Part shown: positions 3 to 60,687 of the stretch, in pieces
Numbering within the stretch: the first letter of the stretch is position 1
How the letters are laid out: every line of letters starts with the position of its first letter
DNA from: a virus
DNA length: 64,000 nucleotides
Strand: one strand, 5' to 3'
Virus record (IMG/VR): IMGVR_UViG_3300023181_000029
Coordinates: 14,595-78,594 of that record
Made by a program: the position numbers and the translations under genes
The notes under the pieces: model-generated
Seen by the model: the letters and a program-made list of their open reading frames with translations, nothing else
The model's database searches: none
Told to the model about the DNA's origin: nothing

Positions 3-485
3 GGGTTTGACGCTGATAAAATACTATCCTACGTTATATTCCTAATAGATGACAATTCGCCGTTCTTTAAAGTAGAGGATTTCGCGCAAAGGCACCGATT
101 GGCCGCGCAGCAAGCCGGACTAAAGGAAACCGACATTGAAAAGCTGGATATAAAGAGTAACGTTGCCCTTAATTCGATATTCTCAGGCTATCTGCGGGTA
201 GTAAACAGCGATGACTTTACGTTGTGGTTTTCTTTAAAGCAGAACTTCTACAACAACACTGAAATGATACGCGATGCTACACTTGAGGGCAACGACCCCG
301 TAATGGCGGTAAAGCGTAAACAGGAAATAGGCATAGCGCTTAAAGATTCCCTGAACACAATCCGCGACCTAGAGGCTAGATTGTTTAAGGACGAAAGAAT
401 AAAGGATAGGGTTACGCAATCAGCAATGATAGAAATGGTTAACTGGACAGAACGTTTGGCTGACCCATCAGGCACAGTACATTGA
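3..485 (+). CDS. 5'-truncated protein upstream of terminase (possible small terminase subunit)
   Basis: Frame is open from position 3 (GFDADKILSYVIFL...), upstream of the ORF-track start. Its stop overlaps the TTG start of the large terminase. Function inferred from position only. Confidence 0.5.
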   Translation, partial: GFDADKILSYVIFLIDDNSPFFKVEDFAQRHRLAAQQAGLKETDIEKLDIKSNVALNSIFSGYLRVVNSDDFTLWFSLKQNFYNNTEMIRDATLEGNDPVMAVKRKQEIGIALKDSLNTIRDLEARLFKDERIKDRVTQSAMIEMVNWTERLADPSGTVH

Positions 486-2605
486 GAGAATACACGATTA
501 GTTGGCACCAAGGCTTAACAAAGCAAATCGGCGAGTTTCAGGTTCCTATACCTGACATGCCGGAGCCTAAAGATATTATCAACTACGGACTACCGGCGCA
601 TAAGCAGTTCTTTGTTCGCACTATTATCCCAGAGGATATAATCACACGCACCTGTTCGCTACAAGTTGAAGAAAAGTTTGTTGAGCGAGAATGGCACCGT
701 AGGCGTAACGGCGTATGGATGTATATTAAGGGTGAAGCACATTGGCTCCCCGGCAAGTTCTACTACTTTATGAATTACTGGACGTGCGAGTATGGCGGGT
801 TGCCGCACTTCCGTTTAGTGCAATTAAACGTAGCTCAGTTCTGGGAAATGTGCGTAGCTGATAAAGATTGTTTTGGAATGCTACTCATAAAGCCACGTAG
901 GGTAGGCGGAACAGAATATGCGCTATGTGATACAGCCGAACATACTACTAGGGTAGATGAGGCTAGGGCAGGTATGCAAAATATGACTGACGACGACGCG
1001 AAAGCAGATGTCACGCGTATTAACAAGGCGCTAAAGAAGATGCCTCACTACTTTTTGCCGGTAATGGCAACTCCGTTTACCTCAAAAGATAAAGTGGTGT
1101 TCGACATACCTAGCGAGCGTCAAACTAAAGCAAAATCACAAGAGAAGTTTAAGAGAAGCGCTGAGAATAAGGGTATTAAGGTGCTAGGGTCTGAAATAAT
1201 CATCGAGGCAACAAAAATATCAGGCTTCGACGGTAAACGTTTAACGCGCCACAGGTTAGGTGAGTGCCTAAAAATAGACCCCGCGCGGATGAACATTAAG
1301 ACGCAATGGAATAACGTGCGTATGTGTATCTCGTTAAATAACGGGCAAGATTTAGTAGGTAAGGGCTATTGGGAATCTACAGTAGAGCAGGCGGAGGGCG
1401 GTAAAAACAAAGAACTAACCAACTTAAAGCAGGTTCAAGAATTATGGGAAGAATCAGACCCTATGATTCGCGATAGGAACGGGCGCACATTATCTGGCAT
1501 GTACCGTCTGTTTATTGATGCATCACAAGCCGCCAAAGTGGATGAATACGGATATCCTGAATCAGAGAAAACGGTTAAATTCCTATTGCAGCAATGGGAA
1601 GACTGGACTAAGAAAGGAAAGTTTGACGATGTTTTGATTGACCAGCGCAAAAACCCGCTCACAATAGAACACGCGCTTACTCCAAGTAACGAGCAATGCC
1701 CATTCTTACCTCAGATACTAAAAGAAAGACTAGGCAAGATATTCCAAGGATTAGACTATAGAGGCGAAACTACCGATGTATTTGGGCGCGAAGTAAAAGA
1801 TAAGGTAGGGAAATTTAATCTTATCCGCGAAGGCGGTCAGCAGGATGGTCGGGTTATCGCGGTTCCTGACCCTGAGAATGGACGGTGGGAAATGCTACTA
1901 GGACACCCAGAAGAAACCAACAAATCGACGTTCTCAAACAACGCCAAATATCCTACCAATACCGATAAGTATTGTATGGGCGTTGACCCTTACGATGACG
2001 CTACTACTGCCTCAGTCTATCATAGGTCAAAGGGAGCCTGTGTAGTATTTAGGAAGTTTGATTCATTATTAGATGGCAACAAATACGATGTAGTTCAAAC
2101 TACAGAAGGCGAAATACAAAAACCACTTGCAGGACAGTATGCGTCGTTTATGCCCGTAGCAGTCTATGTGCACAGGCACGACAACCCTAAGCATTTCTAT
2201 GAAGACATGGTAATGACGGCTCAATTCTTTGGATGTGAAATGCTACCTGAAACTAATAAGAAACAAATCATACCATACTTCCAAGAGCGAGGTTACGGTA
2301 GTTACATAATGTATCCACCGGGCTATATGTTAGACGGCAAAACAGTTCGACAGCCGGGGCTTGCATCTTCTACCAACGTAATAGAGGACTACATGCAAAA
2401 AATTCAAGCATACGTATCCGAATATGGCGACGCTATACATTTTGCAACGCTACTGAAAGATTTATTAATGTTCACTCCCGCCACACGTAAAAAGCGGGAT
2501 TTATCAGTAGCATTCGGCTTTGCATTGATAGCCAACTCAAATCTATTTGTTCAGGAACTAGACGACGATATATCAACGTTCACCCTAGACTTCCATACTT
2601 TGTGA
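482..2605 (+). CDS. terL: Terminase large subunit (crAss-like type)
   Basis: Walker A-like LLIKPRRVGGT and GMYRLFI; C-terminal RNase H nuclease motifs MGVDPYD, LPETNK and RDLSVA; 707 aa, directly before the portal. Confidence 0.9.
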   Translation: MREYTISWHQGLTKQIGEFQVPIPDMPEPKDIINYGLPAHKQFFVRTIIPEDIITRTCSLQVEEKFVEREWHRRRNGVWMYIKGEAHWLPGKFYYFMNYWTCEYGGLPHFRLVQLNVAQFWEMCVADKDCFGMLLIKPRRVGGTEYALCDTAEHTTRVDEARAGMQNMTDDDAKADVTRINKALKKMPHYFLPVMATPFTSKDKVVFDIPSERQTKAKSQEKFKRSAENKGIKVLGSEIIIEATKISGFDGKRLTRHRLGECLKIDPARMNIKTQWNNVRMCISLNNGQDLVGKGYWESTVEQAEGGKNKELTNLKQVQELWEESDPMIRDRNGRTLSGMYRLFIDASQAAKVDEYGYPESEKTVKFLLQQWEDWTKKGKFDDVLIDQRKNPLTIEHALTPSNEQCPFLPQILKERLGKIFQGLDYRGETTDVFGREVKDKVGKFNLIREGGQQDGRVIAVPDPENGRWEMLLGHPEETNKSTFSNNAKYPTNTDKYCMGVDPYDDATTASVYHRSKGACVVFRKFDSLLDGNKYDVVQTTEGEIQKPLAGQYASFMPVAVYVHRHDNPKHFYEDMVMTAQFFGCEMLPETNKKQIIPYFQERGYGSYIMYPPGYMLDGKTVRQPGLASSTNVIEDYMQKIQAYVSEYGDAIHFATLLKDLLMFTPATRKKRDLSVAFGFALIANSNLFVQELDDDISTFTLDFHTL

Positions 2606-2662: not shown

Positions 2663-5170
2663 TTGCCGGATTATTTAGCCAATCAGTTTCTCAATACGTC
2701 TGATTTTATGGGAGGGAACCACCCCTTTCCAGACGAGAATATTGACCCCAAAAAGAAAGGCAAGGATTACTGGTTAAAAGTAGTCTACGCTACTTGGCAC
2801 CTATACCTGAACAACAGGTGCATTGTGCCGTATAATTTCCCGTCAACAGGGTTTGATGATTCGGAATATTCTATAGACGAGCAACGCGCATATGCAACCG
2901 GCAAAATAAACGTCAACAAATACAAGCCATTATTAGCGCAACTATCTAAATCAACGCACCCTGTATTGGCTGGCAAGACCATGATGAATATTTCATGGAG
3001 GCAGGTTCCTATCATTCCTAAGTTCGTAGACATTGCCAAGGGAATGTTTATGCAGATGGATTACGACTTCGACGTTAATTCTGTTGACGCGCGCGACGTA
3101 GAAGAAAAGGAATTGCAAAAGGCGTTCTATAAAGTAGAGCACAATATAGAGTACCGCAAGTTCGTAGCGGGCATGGAAGCATTGGGTGTTCAGGTAAATA
3201 AAGAGGCCAAGGATAAGTTTGAGAGTGAAGCCCAAGTAGACCTAGCAGCAATGATGGGCATGTTTAAGGTAGCTCACGAAGCCGAACTATACACAGCGCT
3301 TAAAGCTACTATGGACGCTAGTTCATGGGACATTATTAAGGATAAGCTGTTTGAGGATTTAATATCTGTTTCCAAGACTGCTACTTGCACATACGTAGAG
3401 CCTAGTACCCAAACAGTAAAAACCCGTTGGGCTGATATACGCAATGTCATCAGCAGGAAGTCTCCGTATGAAGACGGTCGTACTATTGACTGGATAGGCG
3501 AAATAAGATACAATGTAACTATCTCAGAACTTCGTGAGCAATTCAAGGTCGAGGAAACTACATTGCGTAAAATAGTGAAGGACTATTCGCAGATGCGGAA
3601 CTGGAACGCCACCAATATATACAATACAGTATATCAGGGGCAGTCATACGCGCAGAACGGATTCTATAGTTACGATGGATTTGGTGTTGACTTGCTTGAA
3701 CTATACTATATATCCGGTGATACCGAAAAGTACACCGAGGTATACAATAAGAAAAAAGCCAGAACCTCATTCAATAAAGTAGGTAACGATTATCAGGAAA
3801 GCGAGGAAGGCAAGAAAGACGGCAAGAAACTGAGTACCGTTCGCGAGGAAAGACTATATAAGATAGTATGGGTTGTAGGCACTGACATATTAGTAGAATG
3901 CGGATTAGCGCACGATGTACCATATCAGGACGGCAAACCAATGTTGCCTATTCAGGTCTATGATACAAAAACCGTTTCCCTAGTTTCCAGAATGATAGGG
4001 TTTCAGGACGACATAAACCTTGCTACTTATAAATTTAGAAATGCACTAGCTAAAGTGCCGCCACCGCCACGCATGCAAGTAGAGCAACGTTCTATATCGA
4101 ATGTTACGCTTGGCGGCACTAAGATGAAGGAAACGGACGTTATTAATCTGTTCGGAGAATCGGGCTTATTCCTTATGAATAGCCTGAATGACCACCGCCA
4201 ACCGAATAGCGCGACACCCGGCAGACCTGTTACATACTTACAATCAGGTATAGCAGAAGACTTCGGAATGTTTATTCAGACCATAGACCACAACATCAAT
4301 ATGATGCGACTGGTAATAGGCATGAATGAAACCGCTGACGGTTCTACTCAGGGCGAAAGAAAAGCAGTAAGGGTAGCGCAAATGGAAATGAATAGCACTA
4401 ATAATGCTTTGTTTCCTATACAGCGTGGCTATATATCAATCTTTGAGCGCACAATGGACGTTGCTATGTGCAAGTGGCAGATAGTAGCAAGCGGCGGCAA
4501 AGAAATAAAATACAAGGGGCTTAATCAGTCTACTTACGATATTATTAAATTAGGCGCAACACATAGTGCGCGTAATTTCGGCTTAAAGGTTAAAATCCTG
4601 CCGACCAAAGAAGAACTGAAACAATTCTTGGTGAATATCGAGAACATGTACGCAGGTCGCCAACAGACAGGACAAGGCGGTATTAGCTACGAAAAATACA
4701 TCATCCTCACTAGAATAATTCAAACCGGCAACCTAGACCTTGCTCAGTTGATGGCTGTTCAATTGGTCAACAAGCAACGCCAAGAAGACGCAGAAACCAA
4801 AGCGCAGGATGTACAACTAAATGCTGACCAGCAAATACAATCAGCACAAGCCGCCAACGAAATGAAGATGGGCGAAATCCAGATGGAAATCGACCTGCAA
4901 CTCAAGGCTGATATGCAGATGAAAGATTTGGATTTCCAAATGAAAGAACTGGAATCGCAACTTAGAATGCAGGAAATGATTTTGCAAAGTAAACTTGCAA
5001 AAGGCGAAATAGAAACTGTAGAGCAGTTTGAAACTATGCGCACCACTATGAAGTTAGCTATTCAGGAACAGAAGGACGCTTTAATGGCGGCAACTCAAAT
5101 AAAGATAGCTGAAATATCCGCAGCAGCTAAGAAACAAACTGCTAACAAATCGAGCAAGAAAGTTGCGTAA
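2663..5170 (+). CDS. Portal protein
   Basis: 835 aa after terL; ISWRQVPIIPKFVDI and IGMNETADGS segments; long Q/M/E-rich coiled-coil C-terminus typical of podovirus/crAss-like portals. Confidence 0.85.
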   Translation: MPDYLANQFLNTSDFMGGNHPFPDENIDPKKKGKDYWLKVVYATWHLYLNNRCIVPYNFPSTGFDDSEYSIDEQRAYATGKINVNKYKPLLAQLSKSTHPVLAGKTMMNISWRQVPIIPKFVDIAKGMFMQMDYDFDVNSVDARDVEEKELQKAFYKVEHNIEYRKFVAGMEALGVQVNKEAKDKFESEAQVDLAAMMGMFKVAHEAELYTALKATMDASSWDIIKDKLFEDLISVSKTATCTYVEPSTQTVKTRWADIRNVISRKSPYEDGRTIDWIGEIRYNVTISELREQFKVEETTLRKIVKDYSQMRNWNATNIYNTVYQGQSYAQNGFYSYDGFGVDLLELYYISGDTEKYTEVYNKKKARTSFNKVGNDYQESEEGKKDGKKLSTVREERLYKIVWVVGTDILVECGLAHDVPYQDGKPMLPIQVYDTKTVSLVSRMIGFQDDINLATYKFRNALAKVPPPPRMQVEQRSISNVTLGGTKMKETDVINLFGESGLFLMNSLNDHRQPNSATPGRPVTYLQSGIAEDFGMFIQTIDHNINMMRLVIGMNETADGSTQGERKAVRVAQMEMNSTNNALFPIQRGYISIFERTMDVAMCKWQIVASGGKEIKYKGLNQSTYDIIKLGATHSARNFGLKVKILPTKEELKQFLVNIENMYAGRQQTGQGGISYEKYIILTRIIQTGNLDLAQLMAVQLVNKQRQEDAETKAQDVQLNADQQIQSAQAANEMKMGEIQMEIDLQLKADMQMKDLDFQMKELESQLRMQEMILQSKLAKGEIETVEQFETMRTTMKLAIQEQKDALMAATQIKIAEISAAAKKQTANKSSKKVA

Positions 5171-31068: not shown

Positions 31069-31603
31069 CGATAGAGTGGTAAAGATAGCTATGTGGGTTT
31101 TACGGCAATATAACATGACAGAAATAATCTGTGCGGAAAATCTTCAATATCTGCTAAAGAATACTATACTGGTGTCTATTGGGTTCTTTGCTATCGTGGA
31201 ACTAATAATAGATTATCCTGTACGGCTTATGGCTGTATTTGTTATATTGGGTATATTTTGCGACCTAACTTGTGGAATATGGGCGAATTGCTGGAAGGGT
31301 GACGAAAAAATTAGCCCTAAGAAAATAGCAACCTCGATAGGCTATGGAATATACCTAATATCACTGATAGTGCTGCTTTCTTACTTCAAATACATCATTA
31401 GCGTGGTGGAACTGAAATGGGGACACGATTTGTTAGTATTCAGCGTAGACGCGCTTTTTATAACGAGTATTAGTATTTTTTTTATATCCCTTGTATTAAA
31501 CATAGTATCAAATGGCGCAAAAGTTGGAGTATATGGGTGTAGAAGGCTTGCTAAAGTACTAAAATTGAAATTAGACCGAATAAGTGATGACAACGGTAAT
31601 TAA
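31049..31603 (+). CDS. Multi-TM holin-like protein
   Basis: DLTCGIWA...GDEKISPKK pattern like holin family 4; four TM segments; start more likely 31049 than 31013. Confidence 0.55.
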   Translation: MELSRNNDRVVKIAMWVLRQYNMTEIICAENLQYLLKNTILVSIGFFAIVELIIDYPVRLMAVFVILGIFCDLTCGIWANCWKGDEKISPKKIATSIGYGIYLISLIVLLSYFKYIISVVELKWGHDLLVFSVDALFITSISIFFISLVLNIVSNGAKVGVYGCRRLAKVLKLKLDRISDDNGN

Positions 31604-31745
31604 TACATTTTTTGCTCTTTCGCTACTAGGCATAGGTGTGGTGGCTTGTGCGCCTGCTTTCCTTTATGGCAAAAAGCGCCTACAGCCGATGTGGCTGGAG
31701 ATTAAGCATTTTGTGATGTCGTTGTTTTATCGAACGCATCCATAA
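31587..31745 (+). CDS. Small membrane or lipoprotein candidate (not in ORF track)
   Basis: 52 aa, MTTVINTFFALSLLGIGVVAC...; last gene of the lysis block. Confidence 0.3.
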   Translation: MTTVINTFFALSLLGIGVVACAPAFLYGKKRLQPMWLEIKHFVMSLFYRTHP

Positions 31746-31773
31746 ATCAGAGTGTATTTTTATCGGTCATAGG

Positions 31774-31977
31774 TTATTTATCTTTGTGCCAGTCATATAT
31801 TTCGCCATCTGCGCTTCGGTAGGCGAAGTCGCCAGTGAAGTCATCCAAAAAGTAGTAGCTCAAAGCAACAAAGAAATCTTTAATTGCTGGCGTCATTTCG
31901 GAATCTGGAATGCTTAAAGCCTTATTCTGCAATACACGGTACCTTAATGCTTGCTCTGTTTTTATTTCTGTGCTCAT
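31774..31977 (-). CDS. Hypothetical protein
   Basis: ATGA overlap with the upstream gene in the leftward operon. Confidence 0.55.
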   Translation of the reverse strand: MSTEIKTEQALRYRVLQNKALSIPDSEMTPAIKDFFVALSYYFLDDFTGDFAYRSADGEIYDWHKDK

Positions 31978-32213
31978 ACTGTAGGGGTTAATTCGGTTGG
32001 GGTGTTAGATTGAAGCATAGTGGACGCAATAGCTTCCCAATAATCATAACCTTGCTCGGTTTCAGCCCATCCAAATGCAGATTTTAACGCCAAATAAAAC
32101 GTACTATACGACATTAGGTTACTATGCTTATCATCGCTATCTAGCCCGTAATAATATAATGCCTGCTCCCTTATAGGCTCTGGCAATCTATCTAACCATT
32201 GTGCTATTGTCAT
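31974..32213 (-). CDS. Small 'LPEP' family protein
   Basis: L..LPEP.R.QAL and AF.W....G.DYW; paralog of 45293..45505; 5' end duplicated at 63959. Confidence 0.7.
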   Translation of the reverse strand: MTIAQWLDRLPEPIREQALYYYGLDSDDKHSNLMSYSTFYLALKSAFGWAETEQGYDYWEAIASTMLQSNTPTELTPTV

Positions 32214-32248
32214 TTCTTGGTGGTTTCAAGTTCAATTATAAAATCAGG
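32172..32248 (-). repeat. Inverted repeat, copy A (77 bp visible, exact)
   Basis: Reverse complement is identical to 63924..64000. Confidence 0.95.
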
Positions 32249-32434
32249 CTTGCTTAGCTGTAGGGTGTAGCCGTAGTGGTTGAATAGCTTTACCATGTCG
32301 GGGAACTTAGGTACCCATAAGCCTTTCTCATACTTGCGGTAGGCTACCGTGGATACCCCCATGCCTGATGCTGCTTCGCTTTGTTTTTGCTTGTGTAGCT
32401 TACGATAGTGGGTTAATAGTTCGGGTGTGGTCAT
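32210..32434 (-). CDS. XRE-family HTH protein
   Basis: YRK...KQSEAASGMGVSTVAYRKYEKG..VP motif. Confidence 0.8.
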   Translation of the reverse strand: MTTPELLTHYRKLHKQKQSEAASGMGVSTVAYRKYEKGLWVPKFPDMVKLFNHYGYTLQLSKPDFIIELETTKK

Positions 32435-32497
32435 TTTAGTAATAATAATCCCTTAAATGCGCAGGAAATACGTTTCCAATAATTTCGCTTTCAAATT

Positions 32498-32725
32498 TCA
32501 TAATACTCTGTTTATTTCCTTTAGAAAGGCATTCCATTCAGACATGTTGCCAATGGTTCCAGTGCAAGCCATACGTTCTATGTGTTCAGCTAAAAGAGGG
32601 TATTTTTCAAATGGCTGCTTATTTGCTTCTTCTGCCCCTTTTACTTCCCACCCAACACCAAAAATAGCATCCATTAACTTTTGCTCCTGTGGTGTATATC
32701 CATTCTTATTTGTCTCGGTGCTCAT
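32498..32725 (-). CDS. Hypothetical protein
   Basis: Co-oriented ORF in the leftward early operon. Confidence 0.5.
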   Translation of the reverse strand: MSTETNKNGYTPQEQKLMDAIFGVGWEVKGAEEANKQPFEKYPLLAEHIERMACTGTIGNMSEWNAFLKEINRVL

Positions 32726-32742
32726 ATCTATGAGGTTTTAGT

Positions 32743-33033
32743 CTATCCATTAGTTAATAATACTCTACAATTGTTAACCGCCACTTCAAAGTCAGAGGTT
32801 ATATCGTAGCGGCTTGATTGCAACATTACCTCAACCGCTTCGCTACCTGTAGAGCATGGGTTAAATTCCCATCCCAAGTTGTTTTCATAGAAATTATACC
32901 CGCGCTGCTTCTCTTTACTGTCAATCCAGCAGACGGCTATTGTTTCATGCTCTTTTTTGTCAAGAATAAAATACTTGGCGTTTACTTTAAGCCATTCAAG
33001 GGTTAATATTCTTTCTTCTGTTTCTGGTGTCAT
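32743..33033 (-). CDS. Hypothetical protein
   Basis: Co-oriented, with ATGA coupling to the upstream ORF. Confidence 0.55.
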   Translation of the reverse strand: MTPETEERILTLEWLKVNAKYFILDKKEHETIAVCWIDSKEKQRGYNFYENNLGWEFNPCSTGSEAVEVMLQSSRYDITSDFEVAVNNCRVLLTNG

Positions 33034-33203
33034 ATGGTTTCTTTTACGTAATCTTCAATTGATAATTCACTGCAAAAACTTTCGTACACATCACCACGTG
33101 TTGGTAGCCGGTATTTATACCCCGCAACCTCTAGGGCTTCACATATTGCGCTCCAATACTTATCAAGGTCTTCGTTGTACCAGTTATCTGTTTGTGTGCT
33201 CAT
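33030..33203 (-). CDS. Small hypothetical protein (57 aa, not in ORF track)
   Basis: MSTQTDNWYNEDL...; start and stop overlap both neighbours. Confidence 0.5.
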   Translation of the reverse strand: MSTQTDNWYNEDLDKYWSAICEALEVAGYKYRLPTRGDVYESFCSELSIEDYVKETI

Positions 33204-33343
33204 TATCTATCTAATTGGCTTTCGTTAATGTAAAAGTACATTCCATATTCATGTGAGTTAATAAACTTTTCAGCTTTCTCTCTTGTGCTAAAGCCCTGAA
33301 TATAACTATCCGTAATTTCTCTAAAAACTAAGTACACTATCAT
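33203..33343 (-). CDS. Small hypothetical protein (46 aa, not in ORF track)
   Basis: MIVYLVF...GFSTREKAEKF, a common small phage-protein pattern; first gene after a promoter. Confidence 0.55.
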   Translation of the reverse strand: MIVYLVFREITDSYIQGFSTREKAEKFINSHEYGMYFYINESQLDR

Positions 33344-33352
33344 GTTTGTGGT

Positions 33353-33393
33353 TTTTGTCTTACAAATATAACACAAAGGTTTTGATTTAGCAA
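33353..33393 (-). promoter_or_regulatory. Bacteroidota promoter with TTTGT-N3-ACAAA operator
   Basis: Minus strand reads TTG...TATATTTG; TTTTGTCTTACAAAT at 33353-33367. Confidence 0.65.
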
Positions 33394-33429
33394 GTCTAAA
33401 GACGCTATTATATGAAGTAACGTTTCCTT

Positions 33430-34143
33430 TTACCGCTTCTGCTTCTCGATGAAGTTGGCAAAGTAGGTATTATCCATGTAGCGGAGCGTGTCAAGCAAGT
33501 GGGTGCGCTTTAAATCCGTTTTCACCATGCGCCCTTCCTCTATAGCGTCTTTCATCAACTTGCCTGATTCCCAGCGCACTAGCCTCATGTCCTCAATAAG
33601 GTTATAGCAGCTGGAATGAAACTTCCTGTTAGGGTGGCGGCCAAGTATCGTATTTGATAAAGTCCGGCTCTCGCTTACATTGGGGTTGGAGCGGGTTACA
33701 TCAATCTTTGCGGGCTTTAGCACTTGCTGTACTATTTCCCAATCCCGGAACCTGGATGAGGTCTTACGTGCCCAGCCGCTACTATCACCGGTGCATCTTA
33801 TGTGGCAATGCCCTAACTCGGCTTTAATCCTTTCGCATAGCTTTTCAGTGTTGCTATCGTTCAAATTATATTCCTTGAGCGTATAGTACCAGCCATCCCC
33901 GTACTGATGCACAGAGCATGTTATAGGATCTACGTTAAAGTCAAATGACAAGTAAACGGTAAGCCGTGGGTTGATAGTTATTGAATCGTCAATAAAGGAT
34001 TCATCCCAGCAGTACATAAATGGATTCGTAACCTCTGTATGGCCCCATTCGCCTTTAAAGTATATCCGGTAGTAGTCATAGATGAACACAAAAGTAATCA
34101 TCGTAATTGGAATTATAAACAAGAGCCTGTCAAGCAACATCAT
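33430..34143 (-). CDS. TM helix fused to a terminase-large-subunit C-terminal nuclease domain (no ATPase)
   Basis: N-terminal hydrophobic helix, then DYYRIY..GEWG, SFDFNVDP, TGDSSG, SNP.V and HLLDTLRY. Confidence 0.75.
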   Translation of the reverse strand: MMLLDRLLFIIPITMITFVFIYDYYRIYFKGEWGHTEVTNPFMYCWDESFIDDSITINPRLTVYLSFDFNVDPITCSVHQYGDGWYYTLKEYNLNDSNTEKLCERIKAELGHCHIRCTGDSSGWARKTSSRFRDWEIVQQVLKPAKIDVTRSNPNVSESRTLSNTILGRHPNRKFHSSCYNLIEDMRLVRWESGKLMKDAIEEGRMVKTDLKRTHLLDTLRYMDNTYFANFIEKQKR

Positions 34144-34298
34144 TGTAAAACACTTAAGCAGGTTACCATAAGGACTATTAAAGACAGTATAAGCGTAAAA
34201 CTAGTAAAGGCAATAGTATAAACATGAGCCTCAAATTTGCGTCGCCCGCCATAGCTTGCTAAATACCTATTATTCCAGAGTGTAATAAATTCCCTCAT
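34140..34298 (-). CDS. Small membrane protein (52 aa, not in ORF track)
   Basis: MREFITLW...VYTIAFTSFTLILSLIVLMVTCLSVLQ; ATGA overlaps at both ends. Confidence 0.6.
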   Translation of the reverse strand: MREFITLWNNRYLASYGGRRKFEAHVYTIAFTSFTLILSLIVLMVTCLSVLQ

Positions 34299-34525
34299 AA
34301 GGTGCGGTTTTTAGCTTTCATATCAAGCAAACCGTTCAATACAGTCAAGATATAATTAGCACCAATTAGGTTAACGATAGGAATAAATGCAACTATCAGT
34401 AATGGTTTCTTCTTAAAATTCTCATCCTGCCGGGCTGCCCAAAACGTAAAGCATACAATAACAAGCAATGGGAATACGTATGCAAATACACTAATCCATA
34501 AATACTCCTCGTTAGTAAACTCCAT
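34295..34525 (-). CDS. Small two-TM membrane protein
   Basis: Two hydrophobic segments and FIPIVNL motif. Confidence 0.6.
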   Translation of the reverse strand: MEFTNEEYLWISVFAYVFPLLVIVCFTFWAARQDENFKKKPLLIVAFIPIVNLIGANYILTVLNGLLDMKAKNRTL

Positions 34526-34533
34526 AGCCGTGG

Positions 34534-34590
34534 TTTTGTCCTACAAATATACACCTTGCTTTCTATTGTGCAAATTTTTGTCGTACAAAT
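34534..34590 (-). promoter_or_regulatory. Bacteroidota promoter flanked by two TTTGT-N3-ACAAA operators
   Basis: Minus strand reads TTTG...TATATTTG; motifs at 34534-34548 and 34576-34590. Confidence 0.65.
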
Positions 34591-34593
34591 ATT

Positions 34594-35037
34594 TTACTTC
34601 TTTACGTCAATGCGAGTTTTAGCCTTATGACATGACTTGCATAGTCCTTGAAAATTCCACAAACCCATTCCGCCACCGCCTTTATGAACCGGCAATATGT
34701 GGTCAACATCATCAAAGCCTTCTACGCCGCAATGTTTACAGAAATCCCCTTGAGTAATATACAACATACGCCGTATAGACGAACTATCAGAGGAGCATAA
34801 CCGCCATAACCACTCTAATGTAGAAGCACATTCGCTAGAAGACCAGCGCGTTTGACGACCTGTAATCGGTGTTCCGCAGCCACAATCGCATAATCCATCG
34901 TTCTTAGGCGGCAATAATCTAGTAAAGAAATTAGATGTCTTTTGTCTGCGGCTGTATGGATTAATAATACCATCAGCAACCAACTTATTAAATCGGGCTA
35001 AATCATAATTGGCTACTATTTGTGGTATTGTATCCAT
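34594..35037 (-). CDS. HNH endonuclease (HK97 gp74-like) with extra Cys cluster
   Basis: CKHCG...DVDHILPVHKGGG...NFQGLCKSCHKAKT; N-terminal CDCGCG. Confidence 0.88.
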   Translation of the reverse strand: MDTIPQIVANYDLARFNKLVADGIINPYSRRQKTSNFFTRLLPPKNDGLCDCGCGTPITGRQTRWSSSECASTLEWLWRLCSSDSSSIRRMLYITQGDFCKHCGVEGFDDVDHILPVHKGGGGMGLWNFQGLCKSCHKAKTRIDVKK

Positions 35038-35759
35038 GTGTAGAACAAAGCTAAATAGAATTTCCTGTAATGGGCAGGGAGTATTAATACTATAAATGGT
35101 AAAAGGTAATTGCTATAGGGTACCTGTGATATAATGAGAGGTGACCTGCGGAAATGTTTCGGGAATACTAATATTGACTATCTCTGCTTGATAACAATCT
35201 TGCTTGACAGAGTATATGTGTACTTCGTGCATGTATACCGGGCATTTAATCCGCGAGGGCAAGTCGCTCAATCTCGACCGGGTACATCAACCTCACGAAA
35301 TCCTAACTTGCCCACCAATTTCAAAACCAAAGCACAAAAGCCAGTCCATACTATAGAACTAAGCTAAAACATGGTTATGACGTAGCGATACATCAATTAA
35401 TCATGTGTGCTAATGGGAATGACTTACTGTGTGGTATGTGCTAGGCTGTGGTGCTAATGCGAATTATCTCATTAGGTTGCAATACGTCTATGGTTAAGTT
35501 ATCATACACGCCAGTTAAACGACTAGGTGAATATAACGACTGCTCATACATTGTATGTATTTCAATTAAGTATCTTGTTTGGTTGCTCATAGGGCTAAGG
35601 TAATAATATTGCAGTTAACTATATTAGCGATGATAGTTTACAATGCGCCTAATTACATGTTATTTCTGGATTATCGGTGGGGTAGGGGAGGGGCTGAGGC
35701 ACACTGACATAATGGCTATTTAACATAAACGTGGTTATCGTGGGATTTTGGTAAACGCT

Positions 35760-35787
35760 GGAAACTTTAAATGTTCCCGCAGTTTCC
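35760..35787. promoter_or_regulatory. Palindromic operator GGAAACT-N14-AGTTTCC (copy 1)
   Basis: Directly upstream of the TTG...TATCTTTG promoter of the HTH gene; second copy at 36155. Confidence 0.6.
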
Positions 35788-35839
35788 TATTGCAATCCTC
35801 ATACCTATGTATTATCTTTGTTGACATAAGTCGCTGCAA

Positions 35840-36064
35840 ATGATTAGTAAAAGCCCACTTTTGGCAAAAGACATACTTAAGGAAGCACGTAAAAGGCGTA
35901 AATTGACGCTATCGCAGGCCGCAATAGTTACTAAAATTAAGGCATCGACACTATCAAGGTATGAAAACGGCAACAGAAAGATATCAGCAGATGACTTTAT
36001 AAGTATTTTGGGTTATTATAGTGCTCATATTGCCATTATTGAGGCAGATTTTCTATTAACTTGA
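35840..36064 (+). CDS. XRE-family HTH regulator
   Basis: LKEARKRRKLTLSQAA...IKASTLSRYENGNR. Confidence 0.88.
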   Translation: MISKSPLLAKDILKEARKRRKLTLSQAAIVTKIKASTLSRYENGNRKISADDFISILGYYSAHIAIIEADFLLT

Positions 36065-36154
36065 CATTACCTGCTGGAATATGCACACAAAAGGCATGTT
36101 TTGGCAATTATTATGAGTGAAAACAGGTGCAAGAAACAGTCAAAATCCCTTAAC

Positions 36155-36182
36155 GGAAACTTTAAACACACTGAAAGTTTCC
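36155..36182. promoter_or_regulatory. Palindromic operator GGAAACT-N14-AGTTTCC (copy 2)
   Basis: Same arms, same 14-bp spacer, same TTAAA spacer start as copy 1. Confidence 0.6.
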
Positions 36183-36224
36183 ATAGTTCCTATATTTTAG
36201 CGGTAAATAGTTGATATTCACAGC

Positions 36225-36710
36225 GTGAGCAATGCGAAGTCATACGCCTATAAGACTAGCGGATATAATACTCCTGAGCGTGATACACAGAAGTCTGTCC
36301 CTGCTATCACTGCTTATCTTCATGAGCGTAGGCGCATCTATACACTTGTCCTGCATGAATTATGCCCTCCCCGCCCTTCGGGGTCTACTGATAGACGTAA
36401 ACGTATCTTAGATGATATTGTACACTCTGACTTAGATACACTTCTTTACTGTGTTGGTCTGGATATGCGTGAGATAGTCATTATTATAGGCTGTGATTTA
36501 CTCGATAATACTGGCCTGCCTTTAGTTGAAGGCCTTTCAAAGCGTGAGTTTAACCGCATGGATAAATTAGGTCTATTAGGTATCCGCAAGCGTGGGCGTG
36601 TTGAGGTCGAAGGCAAATACTATGATACAGCACGAATATCTGATAAAGGCTTAAAGCTATGCGCACGTATTGGTGAGCTTGTGCGCAAGGTTGCGCAAGA
36701 TTACCGATAA
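36225..36710 (+). CDS. Hypothetical protein, possible C-terminal winged helix
   Basis: MDKLGLL...ISDKGLKL pattern; followed by a terminator. Confidence 0.45.
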   Translation: MSNAKSYAYKTSGYNTPERDTQKSVPAITAYLHERRRIYTLVLHELCPPRPSGSTDRRKRILDDIVHSDLDTLLYCVGLDMREIVIIIGCDLLDNTGLPLVEGLSKREFNRMDKLGLLGIRKRGRVEVEGKYYDTARISDKGLKLCARIGELVRKVAQDYR

Positions 36711-36711
36711 T

Positions 36712-36744
36712 AACAAAGCCCCGCATTACTGCAAGGGCTTTGTT
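36712..36744. terminator. Bidirectional intrinsic terminator
   Basis: AACAAAGCCC...GGGCTTTGTT between convergent units. Confidence 0.7.
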
Positions 36745-37143
36745 TAATTGTTGTTACTGGTGTTAGCTCTTAACTAATATCCGTAACGCTATAGATAGGG
36801 CTTCGTATGCATCTCCTATTAATTTGTCTTTGTTGTGGCGGTCAGGATGTGCGCCTACTAGCCCCATTGCTTGCGCTATGTGTAATATTGCATCCTTTCT
36901 GCTCTTATCTTCTTGCTCTTTCATTCTGTTATGTTTAGTGGCTAGTTATTTGATTTTCTTTCTAAAGCTAGCGGTTACTACATAATCACATAGTTCACTA
37001 CCATAAGCCTCAATCCAATTTTGGGCTTGTGCGCTTTATATCCTGCTTATTATTACAATAATGAACCTCGCAATACTTCCCGCTACTTATTACTAATTGG
37101 TGCCCTCCGGTGCTGTGTTATAGGCTTGATGTCTTTATAGTGC

Positions 37144-60619: not shown

Positions 60620-60687
60620 ATACTCCAAAGATAGAAAAATATTTGAAGGATGGAAATTTGTACGACAAAATGTTTTAGATTTGAGGT
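60620..60687. promoter_or_regulatory. Divergent promoters with TTTGT-N3-ACAAA operator
   Basis: TATCTTTG (-), ATTTGTACGACAAAA at 60656-60670, TAGATTTG (+) at 60676-60683. Confidence 0.6.

Follow-up and report, generated by a model that had tools for sequence, protein, structure and literature searches.

A foreign terminase half behind a small membrane-gene cassette in a metagenomic phage: a probable relic of recombination

A minus-strand open reading frame of 237 codons, orf237 (33430..34143), was analyzed in a 64,000-nucleotide window of phage DNA, corresponding to bases 14595-78594 of a linear 78,594-bp IMG/VR record with an estimated completeness of ~68%. Codons 23-237 (33430..34077) encode the last ATPase-lid helix, the linker, and the complete RNase H-like nuclease of a terminase large subunit (TerL), and, as judged from sequence comparisons, orf237 appears to be the 3′ half of a foreign terL gene of the Terminase_3 type with a full length of about 425 aa. 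On balance, we consider it probable that orf237 is a relic of recent recombination, and that the unit maintained by selection consists of the promoter and the two small membrane ORFs in front of it. The present evidence does not raise orf237 above the case of a relic, and it is not a proven new weapon.

Over residues 23-237, orf237 shares 60% identity with P0016 (residues 216-421). P0016 is 422 aa long and has a Terminase_3 (PF04466) ATPase domain at residues 20-205. The linker and nuclease are also ~50% identical to those of the TerLs from contigs L002-L005. A family HMM of 148 full-length relatives aligned to orf237 through its positions 217-429 with an E-value of 5e-81. The sequences DYYRIY..GEWG, SFDFNVDP, TGDSSG, and HLLDTLRY, taken in the initial annotation for the linker and the three acidic catalytic motifs of a TerL nuclease, are present in orf237 and fall on columns conserved in the 148 full-length TerLs. 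Residues D68, D120, and D218 occupy columns that are 97-100% Asp in these relatives, and the columns of D72 and D185 are likewise conserved. An AlphaFold model of the 237-aa protein (pLDDT 86 overall, above 90 over the core) had the TerL nuclease fold. The solved structures closest to it, as ranked by Foldseek, were the TerL of Geobacillus phage D6E (5oe8/5oe9; 5oe9 with an E-value of 1e-8) and the nuclease domains of P22, SPP1, and G20c, and entries 5oe9, 4dkw, 2wc9, and 5m1f all matched with a probability of 1.00. A Pfam search of orf237 gave no match. In PHROGs, residues 53-233 weakly matched phrog_10250, 'terminase large subunit' (E 0.0019), a family of 228 positions that covers only the C-terminal half of this Terminase_3-type TerL, is also matched by the C-terminal parts of the TerLs from L004 and L005, and bears no sign of a hydrophobic leader. 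A nine-residue insertion, DAIEEGRMV (residues 199-207, 33535-33561), lies in a β-hairpin beside the nuclease active site; it is missing from all aligned relatives and was modelled with a pLDDT of ~64.

The description of the protein as ATPase-less was borne out. Homology begins at orf237 residue 23, which corresponds to P0016 residue 216, and the ASCE ATPase with its Walker A and B motifs is absent. No ATPase remnant was detected in any frame of the window or of the 78.6-kb record, and no TerS of the type found in L005 (phrog_606) was present in the record. Thus, unlike other Terminase_3 TerLs, orf237 lacks the part equivalent to P0016 residues 1-215, carries a 22-residue leader and the nine-residue insertion, and adjoins neither a TerS nor a portal gene, its neighbors being small ORFs without assigned function. 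Without a motor, the product of orf237 is unable to translocate DNA and does not qualify as a terminase. If made, it should, according to the model, fold as a nuclease domain whose two-metal active site is intact, preceded by a marginal hydrophobic leader. The isolated C-terminal domain of SPP1 gp2 has no detectable activity with Mg and is weakly active with Mn (PMC3592435); by analogy, no more than weak, non-specific nuclease activity with a preference for Mn would be expected of the orf237 product.

The phage has a complete TerL of its own, a 707-aa T4 gp17-like protein encoded at 482..2605 on the plus strand (phrog_6681, E 2e-64) and followed by the portal gene (2663-5170, phrog_6547). The resident TerL keeps the family-invariant residues D502, E590, and D673, and its structure model matches T4 gp17 across both domains (685 columns, E 3e-12), as well as the RB49 and G20c nuclease domains; sequence searches of Pfam and PDB with the resident protein gave no match. 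No BLASTP match was obtained between orf237 and the resident TerL, and hhalign returned a probability of 9% with an alignment in the Walker region. The nuclease of orf237 is thus of another type than that of the TerL at 482, as originally proposed. The nearest database homologue of the resident TerL, located on a 77-kb contig, is only 35% identical to it, and since this is the closest one available, the host phage lineage appears to be essentially unsampled. No relatives of the host phage were revealed by searches with the resident TerL or with the flanking genes of 161 aa and 196 aa. A distant relationship (about 25% identity) to the Flavobacterium 'elemo' and Cellulophaga podophages was observed.

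The plus strand of the window carries a complete structural arm, with the 707-aa TerL, the portal, very large tail proteins, and an M15 endolysin. It is followed by a block of small minus-strand genes running from 35037 down to 31974, beyond which a rightward arm opens with an XRE regulator at 35840. A dif-like site (ATTTAACATAA-ACGTGG-TTATCGT, 35676-35746), preceded by a G-rich tract, lies between the minus-strand and rightward arms. This putative Xer site is ~680 nt from the start of the HNH gene described below, so that the captured packaging-module remnant lies beside it. No coding similarity to the 26-42 kb part of the window was found in 13 other viral contigs with the dif pattern. The only sequencing run containing the record is a leaf-litter metagenome, which is probably the source sample; no RNA sequencing run was among the runs listed as containing the record.

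The three minus-strand ORFs of the initial annotation exist as described. orf76 (34295..34525) encodes a small protein of no known family, orf52 (34140..34298) shares an ATGA overlap with each of its neighbors, and orf237 is the last of the three. A candidate promoter of the Bacteroidota type (34535..34574, minus strand) precedes orf76. Its sequence, TTTG-N19-TATATTTG at 34574-34544(-), ends 19 nt before the orf76 ATG and fits the -33/-7 form of Bacteroides promoters, in which the -7 consensus is TAnnTTTG (PMC4747536); the window contains five matches to the pattern, against 2.1 expected. The candidate promoter overlaps a copy of a 17-nt motif, TAtaTTTGTAnGACAAA, at 34551-34535. A second copy with one mismatch, AATATTTGTACGACAAA, is located 42 nt away at 34593-34577 on the same strand, where it abuts the HNH stop codon. 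The presence of a candidate promoter with a repeated motif ahead of orf76 was confirmed, the two copies being candidate operators only. A third copy, TATATTTGTAAGACAAA (33354..33370, minus strand), is found 60 nt past the orf237 stop codon, before the next small gene, of which it is likely the promoter, as judged from its position. Altogether, the window contains four matches to the motif, against 0.08 expected. The fourth, GAAATTTGTACGACAAA, has one mismatch and is situated at 60653-60669 on the plus strand, in another small-gene region, near 60.6 kb. The small gene downstream of orf237 is listed as a 57-aa ORF at 33203-33376 with a TTG start; the ATG at 33343, which is 10 nt past the perfect motif copy and yields a 46-aa product, is a more probable start. 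The product weakly matches phrog_3002 (E 0.0017).

Hydropathy was calculated according to Kyte and Doolittle, with a 19-residue window and a threshold of 1.6. Two segments of orf76 (residues ~6-32 and 41-63), one C-terminal segment of orf52, and one segment of orf237 (residues 1-25, peak 2.17) reached the threshold. A hydrophobic segment is thus present in each ORF, as annotated, its helical or transmembrane status being a prediction only. In orf237, the segment largely coincides with the leader, MMLLDRLLFIIPITMITFVFIY (codons 1-22, 34078..34143, minus strand), which is 32% GC and has no detectable homology to TerL. The hydrophobic core of the segment spans only ~16 residues and contains a central proline, and the leader was modelled with a pLDDT below 50; a transmembrane helix is plausible from the hydropathy profile. 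Neither the family HMM nor a local alignment against the P0016 N-terminus scored the leader above shuffled sequences. An origin of the leader from the ATPase motif-III strand, where MAFFT had placed it, was rejected on the same grounds. A likeness of the leader sequence PITMITF to TerL was also discarded, P0016 reading KPQAILTFNP.

The gene directly upstream of the cassette encodes a 147-aa HNH endonuclease (34594..35037, minus strand; Pfam HNH, E 1.6e-7). Over 139 aa, it shares 47% identity with an HNH protein of 234 aa encoded by L005, a 42.5-kb IMG/VR contig, in which the HNH gene lies between TerS (phrog_606, E 7e-38) and a TerL of 424 aa that is ~51% identical to orf237. In L004, an HNH gene of another family is positioned directly ahead of TerL. 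The two different HNH genes (L004:8675-9202 and L005:8661-9365) are directly upstream of closely related TerLs, on contigs of ~42-44 kb. The HNH slot before terL genes of the Terminase_3 type appears to be exchangeable. In the window, the HNH gene and the TerL C-half succeed each other as they do in L005 and in the same orientation, from which we infer that both are remnants of one captured packaging-module segment. An HNH gene beside terminase genes is characteristic of the HK97 gp74 class (PMC5304195, citing Kala et al. 2014). The window resembles such modules in having its HNH gene directly upstream of TerL sequence, in the orientation seen in L005 and L004, but differs from them in that TerS and the TerL ATPase are missing, a promoter and two membrane ORFs lie in between, and the host phage packages its DNA with another TerL, encoded 32 kb away.

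The similarity to L005 is lost near the stop codon of the HNH gene and resumes only from TerL residue 23 onward. The stretch between these points is about 900 nt long in L005 and 516 nt long in the window, and the 516 nt begin exactly at the distal motif copy, which marks their left edge. They carry the promoter, the two small membrane ORFs, and the hydrophobic leader of 22 codons. Since the promoter motif is also found in front of the neighboring resident gene, the 516-nt cassette looks resident in origin. Base composition changes at the junction, from 32-36% GC upstream to 46% in the nuclease part. The GC3 of the nuclease part is 0.574; the mean of resident genes is 0.389 and their maximum is 0.462, and none of 141 resident windows of 216 codons had a GC3 of 0.574. 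GC3 was considered as a clock and rejected: the C-half of the L005 TerL gene is also high in GC3 (0.529), in a genome of 41% GC, and the high value thus marks foreign origin but gives no date.

The following sequence of events would account for the arrangement. As suggested by gene order, an HNH-TerL packaging-module segment from a phage lineage with genomes of ~40 kb may have been captured by an unrelated, much larger Bacteroidota phage that packages its DNA with its own T4-like TerL, the site of capture probably being the leftward accessory arm. Later, as the limits of similarity suggest, the HNH tail and the whole ATPase domain would have been exchanged for the 516 nt. These would have supplied a promoter motif of the resident type and the two small membrane ORFs, together with a start codon and an AT-rich stretch of 22 codons that runs, perhaps by happenstance, in frame into the TerL linker. 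In phages, it is common for mosaic junctions to contain truncated genes. Nuclease genes are often located at exchange boundaries (Barth et al., bioRxiv 10.1101/2023.03.23.533998). If orf237 is only a relic, it is a neat, datable example of phage mosaic formation and of modest interest: a foreign HNH-TerL segment overwritten at a promoter motif by a membrane-gene cassette, near a dif-like site.

The promoter and the two small membrane ORFs are most likely a moron-like cassette and the unit under selection. Phage morons and superinfection-exclusion genes, such as HK97 gp15 and P22 SieA, encode small membrane proteins, have their own promoters, and are found in accessory regions. The cassette is similar to them in its promoter-like element, in its location on the strand opposite to that of the structural genes, and in the very small size and hydrophobicity of the orf76 and orf52 proteins; these proteins gave no sequence or fold match to any such gene product. 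Neither they nor orf237 matched known defence or exclusion systems in PADLOC, Pfam, or PHROG. The ESM Atlas returned only low-score unnamed clusters for orf76, and no paralogues of the cassette were found elsewhere in the genome. A role of the membrane ORFs in superinfection exclusion is a guess.

A search of representative sequences yielded 961 homologues of orf237, and among the best 150 of these, on which lengths were judged, nearly all were 400-480 aa long. Eight short homologues were inspected; they begin inside ATPase sequence, and none starts with a hydrophobic segment. In all 80 relatives on viral contigs, 200-250 in-frame codons precede the matching part, save where the contig ends. 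A leader joined to a nuclease was not encountered elsewhere, either at the 80 viral loci or among the best 150 of the 961 representatives; uniqueness of the architecture had been named in the initial annotation as a finding that would speak against a repurposed module. Neither databases nor the literature yielded a TerL nuclease half that is intact, coupled to a promoter, and preceded by a hydrophobic leader, a literature search for truncated or dominant-negative terminase fragments retrieved nothing relevant, and no close relatives of orf237 were present in viral or metagenome contig collections. That orf237 is a singleton carries little weight as evidence, since no collection searched contains relatives of the host phage. 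A near-identical full-length terL, which would also have spoken against repurposing, was not found, the nearest being only 60% identical. The idea of a repurposed module thus gains no comparative support: the architecture is seen nowhere else, and gene order marks orf237 as a remnant of foreign packaging genes.

Simple decay had been argued against earlier, and in this respect the claim stands: the frame is open, the acidic residues are kept, and no acceleration of rate was detected. In a maximum-likelihood tree, orf237 is sister to full-length P0016, with branches of 0.274 and 0.305, respectively. At 30 conserved columns, orf237 departs from the consensus three times and P0016 four times; the mean for full-length TerLs is 2.7. 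In every comparison of orf237 with a relative at the DNA level dS was saturated, leaving dN/dS undefined. Lack of decay is expected whether the truncation is recent or the gene is selected, and the simplest reason for the intactness of orf237 is that the truncation is recent, rather than that the fragment is selected. The 237 open codons, the two ATGA couplings, and the promoter are also typical of a selected gene and count against a relic, as does the fact that useless DNA is usually quickly deleted by phages.

That orf237 is an exapted, stand-alone nuclease is a possibility that we regard as real but doubtful. In this case, a fusion protein expressed from the cassette promoter would be held at or near the inner membrane by its leader and would act on DNA by nicking or degrading it, possible substrates being the DNA of the host, DNA entering from other phages, and DNA first cut by the product of the adjacent HNH gene. 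The intact active site and the confidently predicted fold, the branch without rate acceleration, translational coupling behind a plausible promoter, a leader above the Kyte-Doolittle threshold, the preservation of an intact HNH partner, and the lineage-specific nine-residue insertion in the hairpin beside the active site are all consistent with this explanation. It is weakened by the failure to find a second example of the architecture among the best 150 of 961 homologues, by the lack of a PADLOC match, and by the poor activity of isolated TerL nuclease domains (PMC3592435). Moreover, the leader is short and contains a central proline, and DNA of 32% GC gives hydrophobic codons by composition alone. 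If orf237 were both expressed and active, it would represent the first case of a stand-alone TerL nuclease taken into a role other than packaging, and a candidate tool in phage-phage competition, with relevance to terminases, Avs sensing, and superinfection exclusion.

It is improbable that a membrane-tethered, stand-alone TerL nuclease kept under the phage's own promoter and its HNH partner, both from a rival lineage, are used against that rival, whether by portal occupation as a motor-less subunit or by DNA cutting at the membrane; such a use would amount to inter-phage warfare waged with stolen packaging parts. Still less probable is a function of the fragment as a poison of competitors, which would bind portals or TerL rings of donor-type phages of ~40 kb in the shared host and so block their packaging, or as a decoy that soaks up terminase-sensing Avs proteins. 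The C-terminal domain of SPP1 gp2 alone binds portal-containing procapsids (PMC3592435), the fragment stems from a different phage lineage with contigs of ~40-44 kb, and Avs3, which contacts the native nuclease domain, is represented by 8dgc among the Foldseek matches. However, both proposals are pure inference, the fragment is a singleton, and a membrane tether would hinder access to procapsids. The decoy idea, put forward in the initial annotation, lost ground for a further reason: Avs2 responds chiefly to the ATPase domain, and nuclease domains activate some Avs2 proteins (bioRxiv 10.64898/2026.04.30.721860), so that one more nuclease domain could be a disadvantage to the phage instead of a decoy.

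That orf237 is one part of a split second terminase, with an ATPase half located in the missing ~32% of the genome or hidden by an intron or homing endonuclease, is highly improbable. The record is indeed only ~68% complete, and separate PHROGs exist for the N-terminal half (phrog_3717, 277 positions) and the C-terminal half (phrog_10250, 228 positions) of this Terminase_3-type TerL, which suggests that split or two-ORF annotations exist in cultured phages. However, neither an ATPase match nor a donor TerS is present in the 78.6 kb, a search of 31500-37000 for group I introns and other Rfam families was negative, and a complete TerL and a portal are already encoded by the phage. An assembly chimera of two phages, conceivable for metagenomic DNA with a nuclease part of foreign composition, is scarcely credible, since resident sequence with the same promoter motif lies on both sides and two chimeric joins would be needed, and since a 31.7-kb contig produced from the same run by a second assembler spans 32900-35300 without one difference, an agreement that is only partly independent, as the sample is probably the same.

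A 10-mer, TTGCTTGAYA, occurs five times in the window, against 0.46 expected, and four of the copies are clustered at 33489-35209. One of these encodes HLLD of nuclease motif III and is ancestral, a copy being present in L004 too. Another encodes LLDR of the leader and is identical to the motif-III copy at 14 of 15 nt, and a third is near the end of orf76. The cluster could be due to chance, could reflect microhomology used in rearrangement, or could be a binding site. The fourth copy is on the opposite strand, 163 nt upstream of the HNH start, and is contained within a 26-nt, 77% inverted repeat with 34127-34152.
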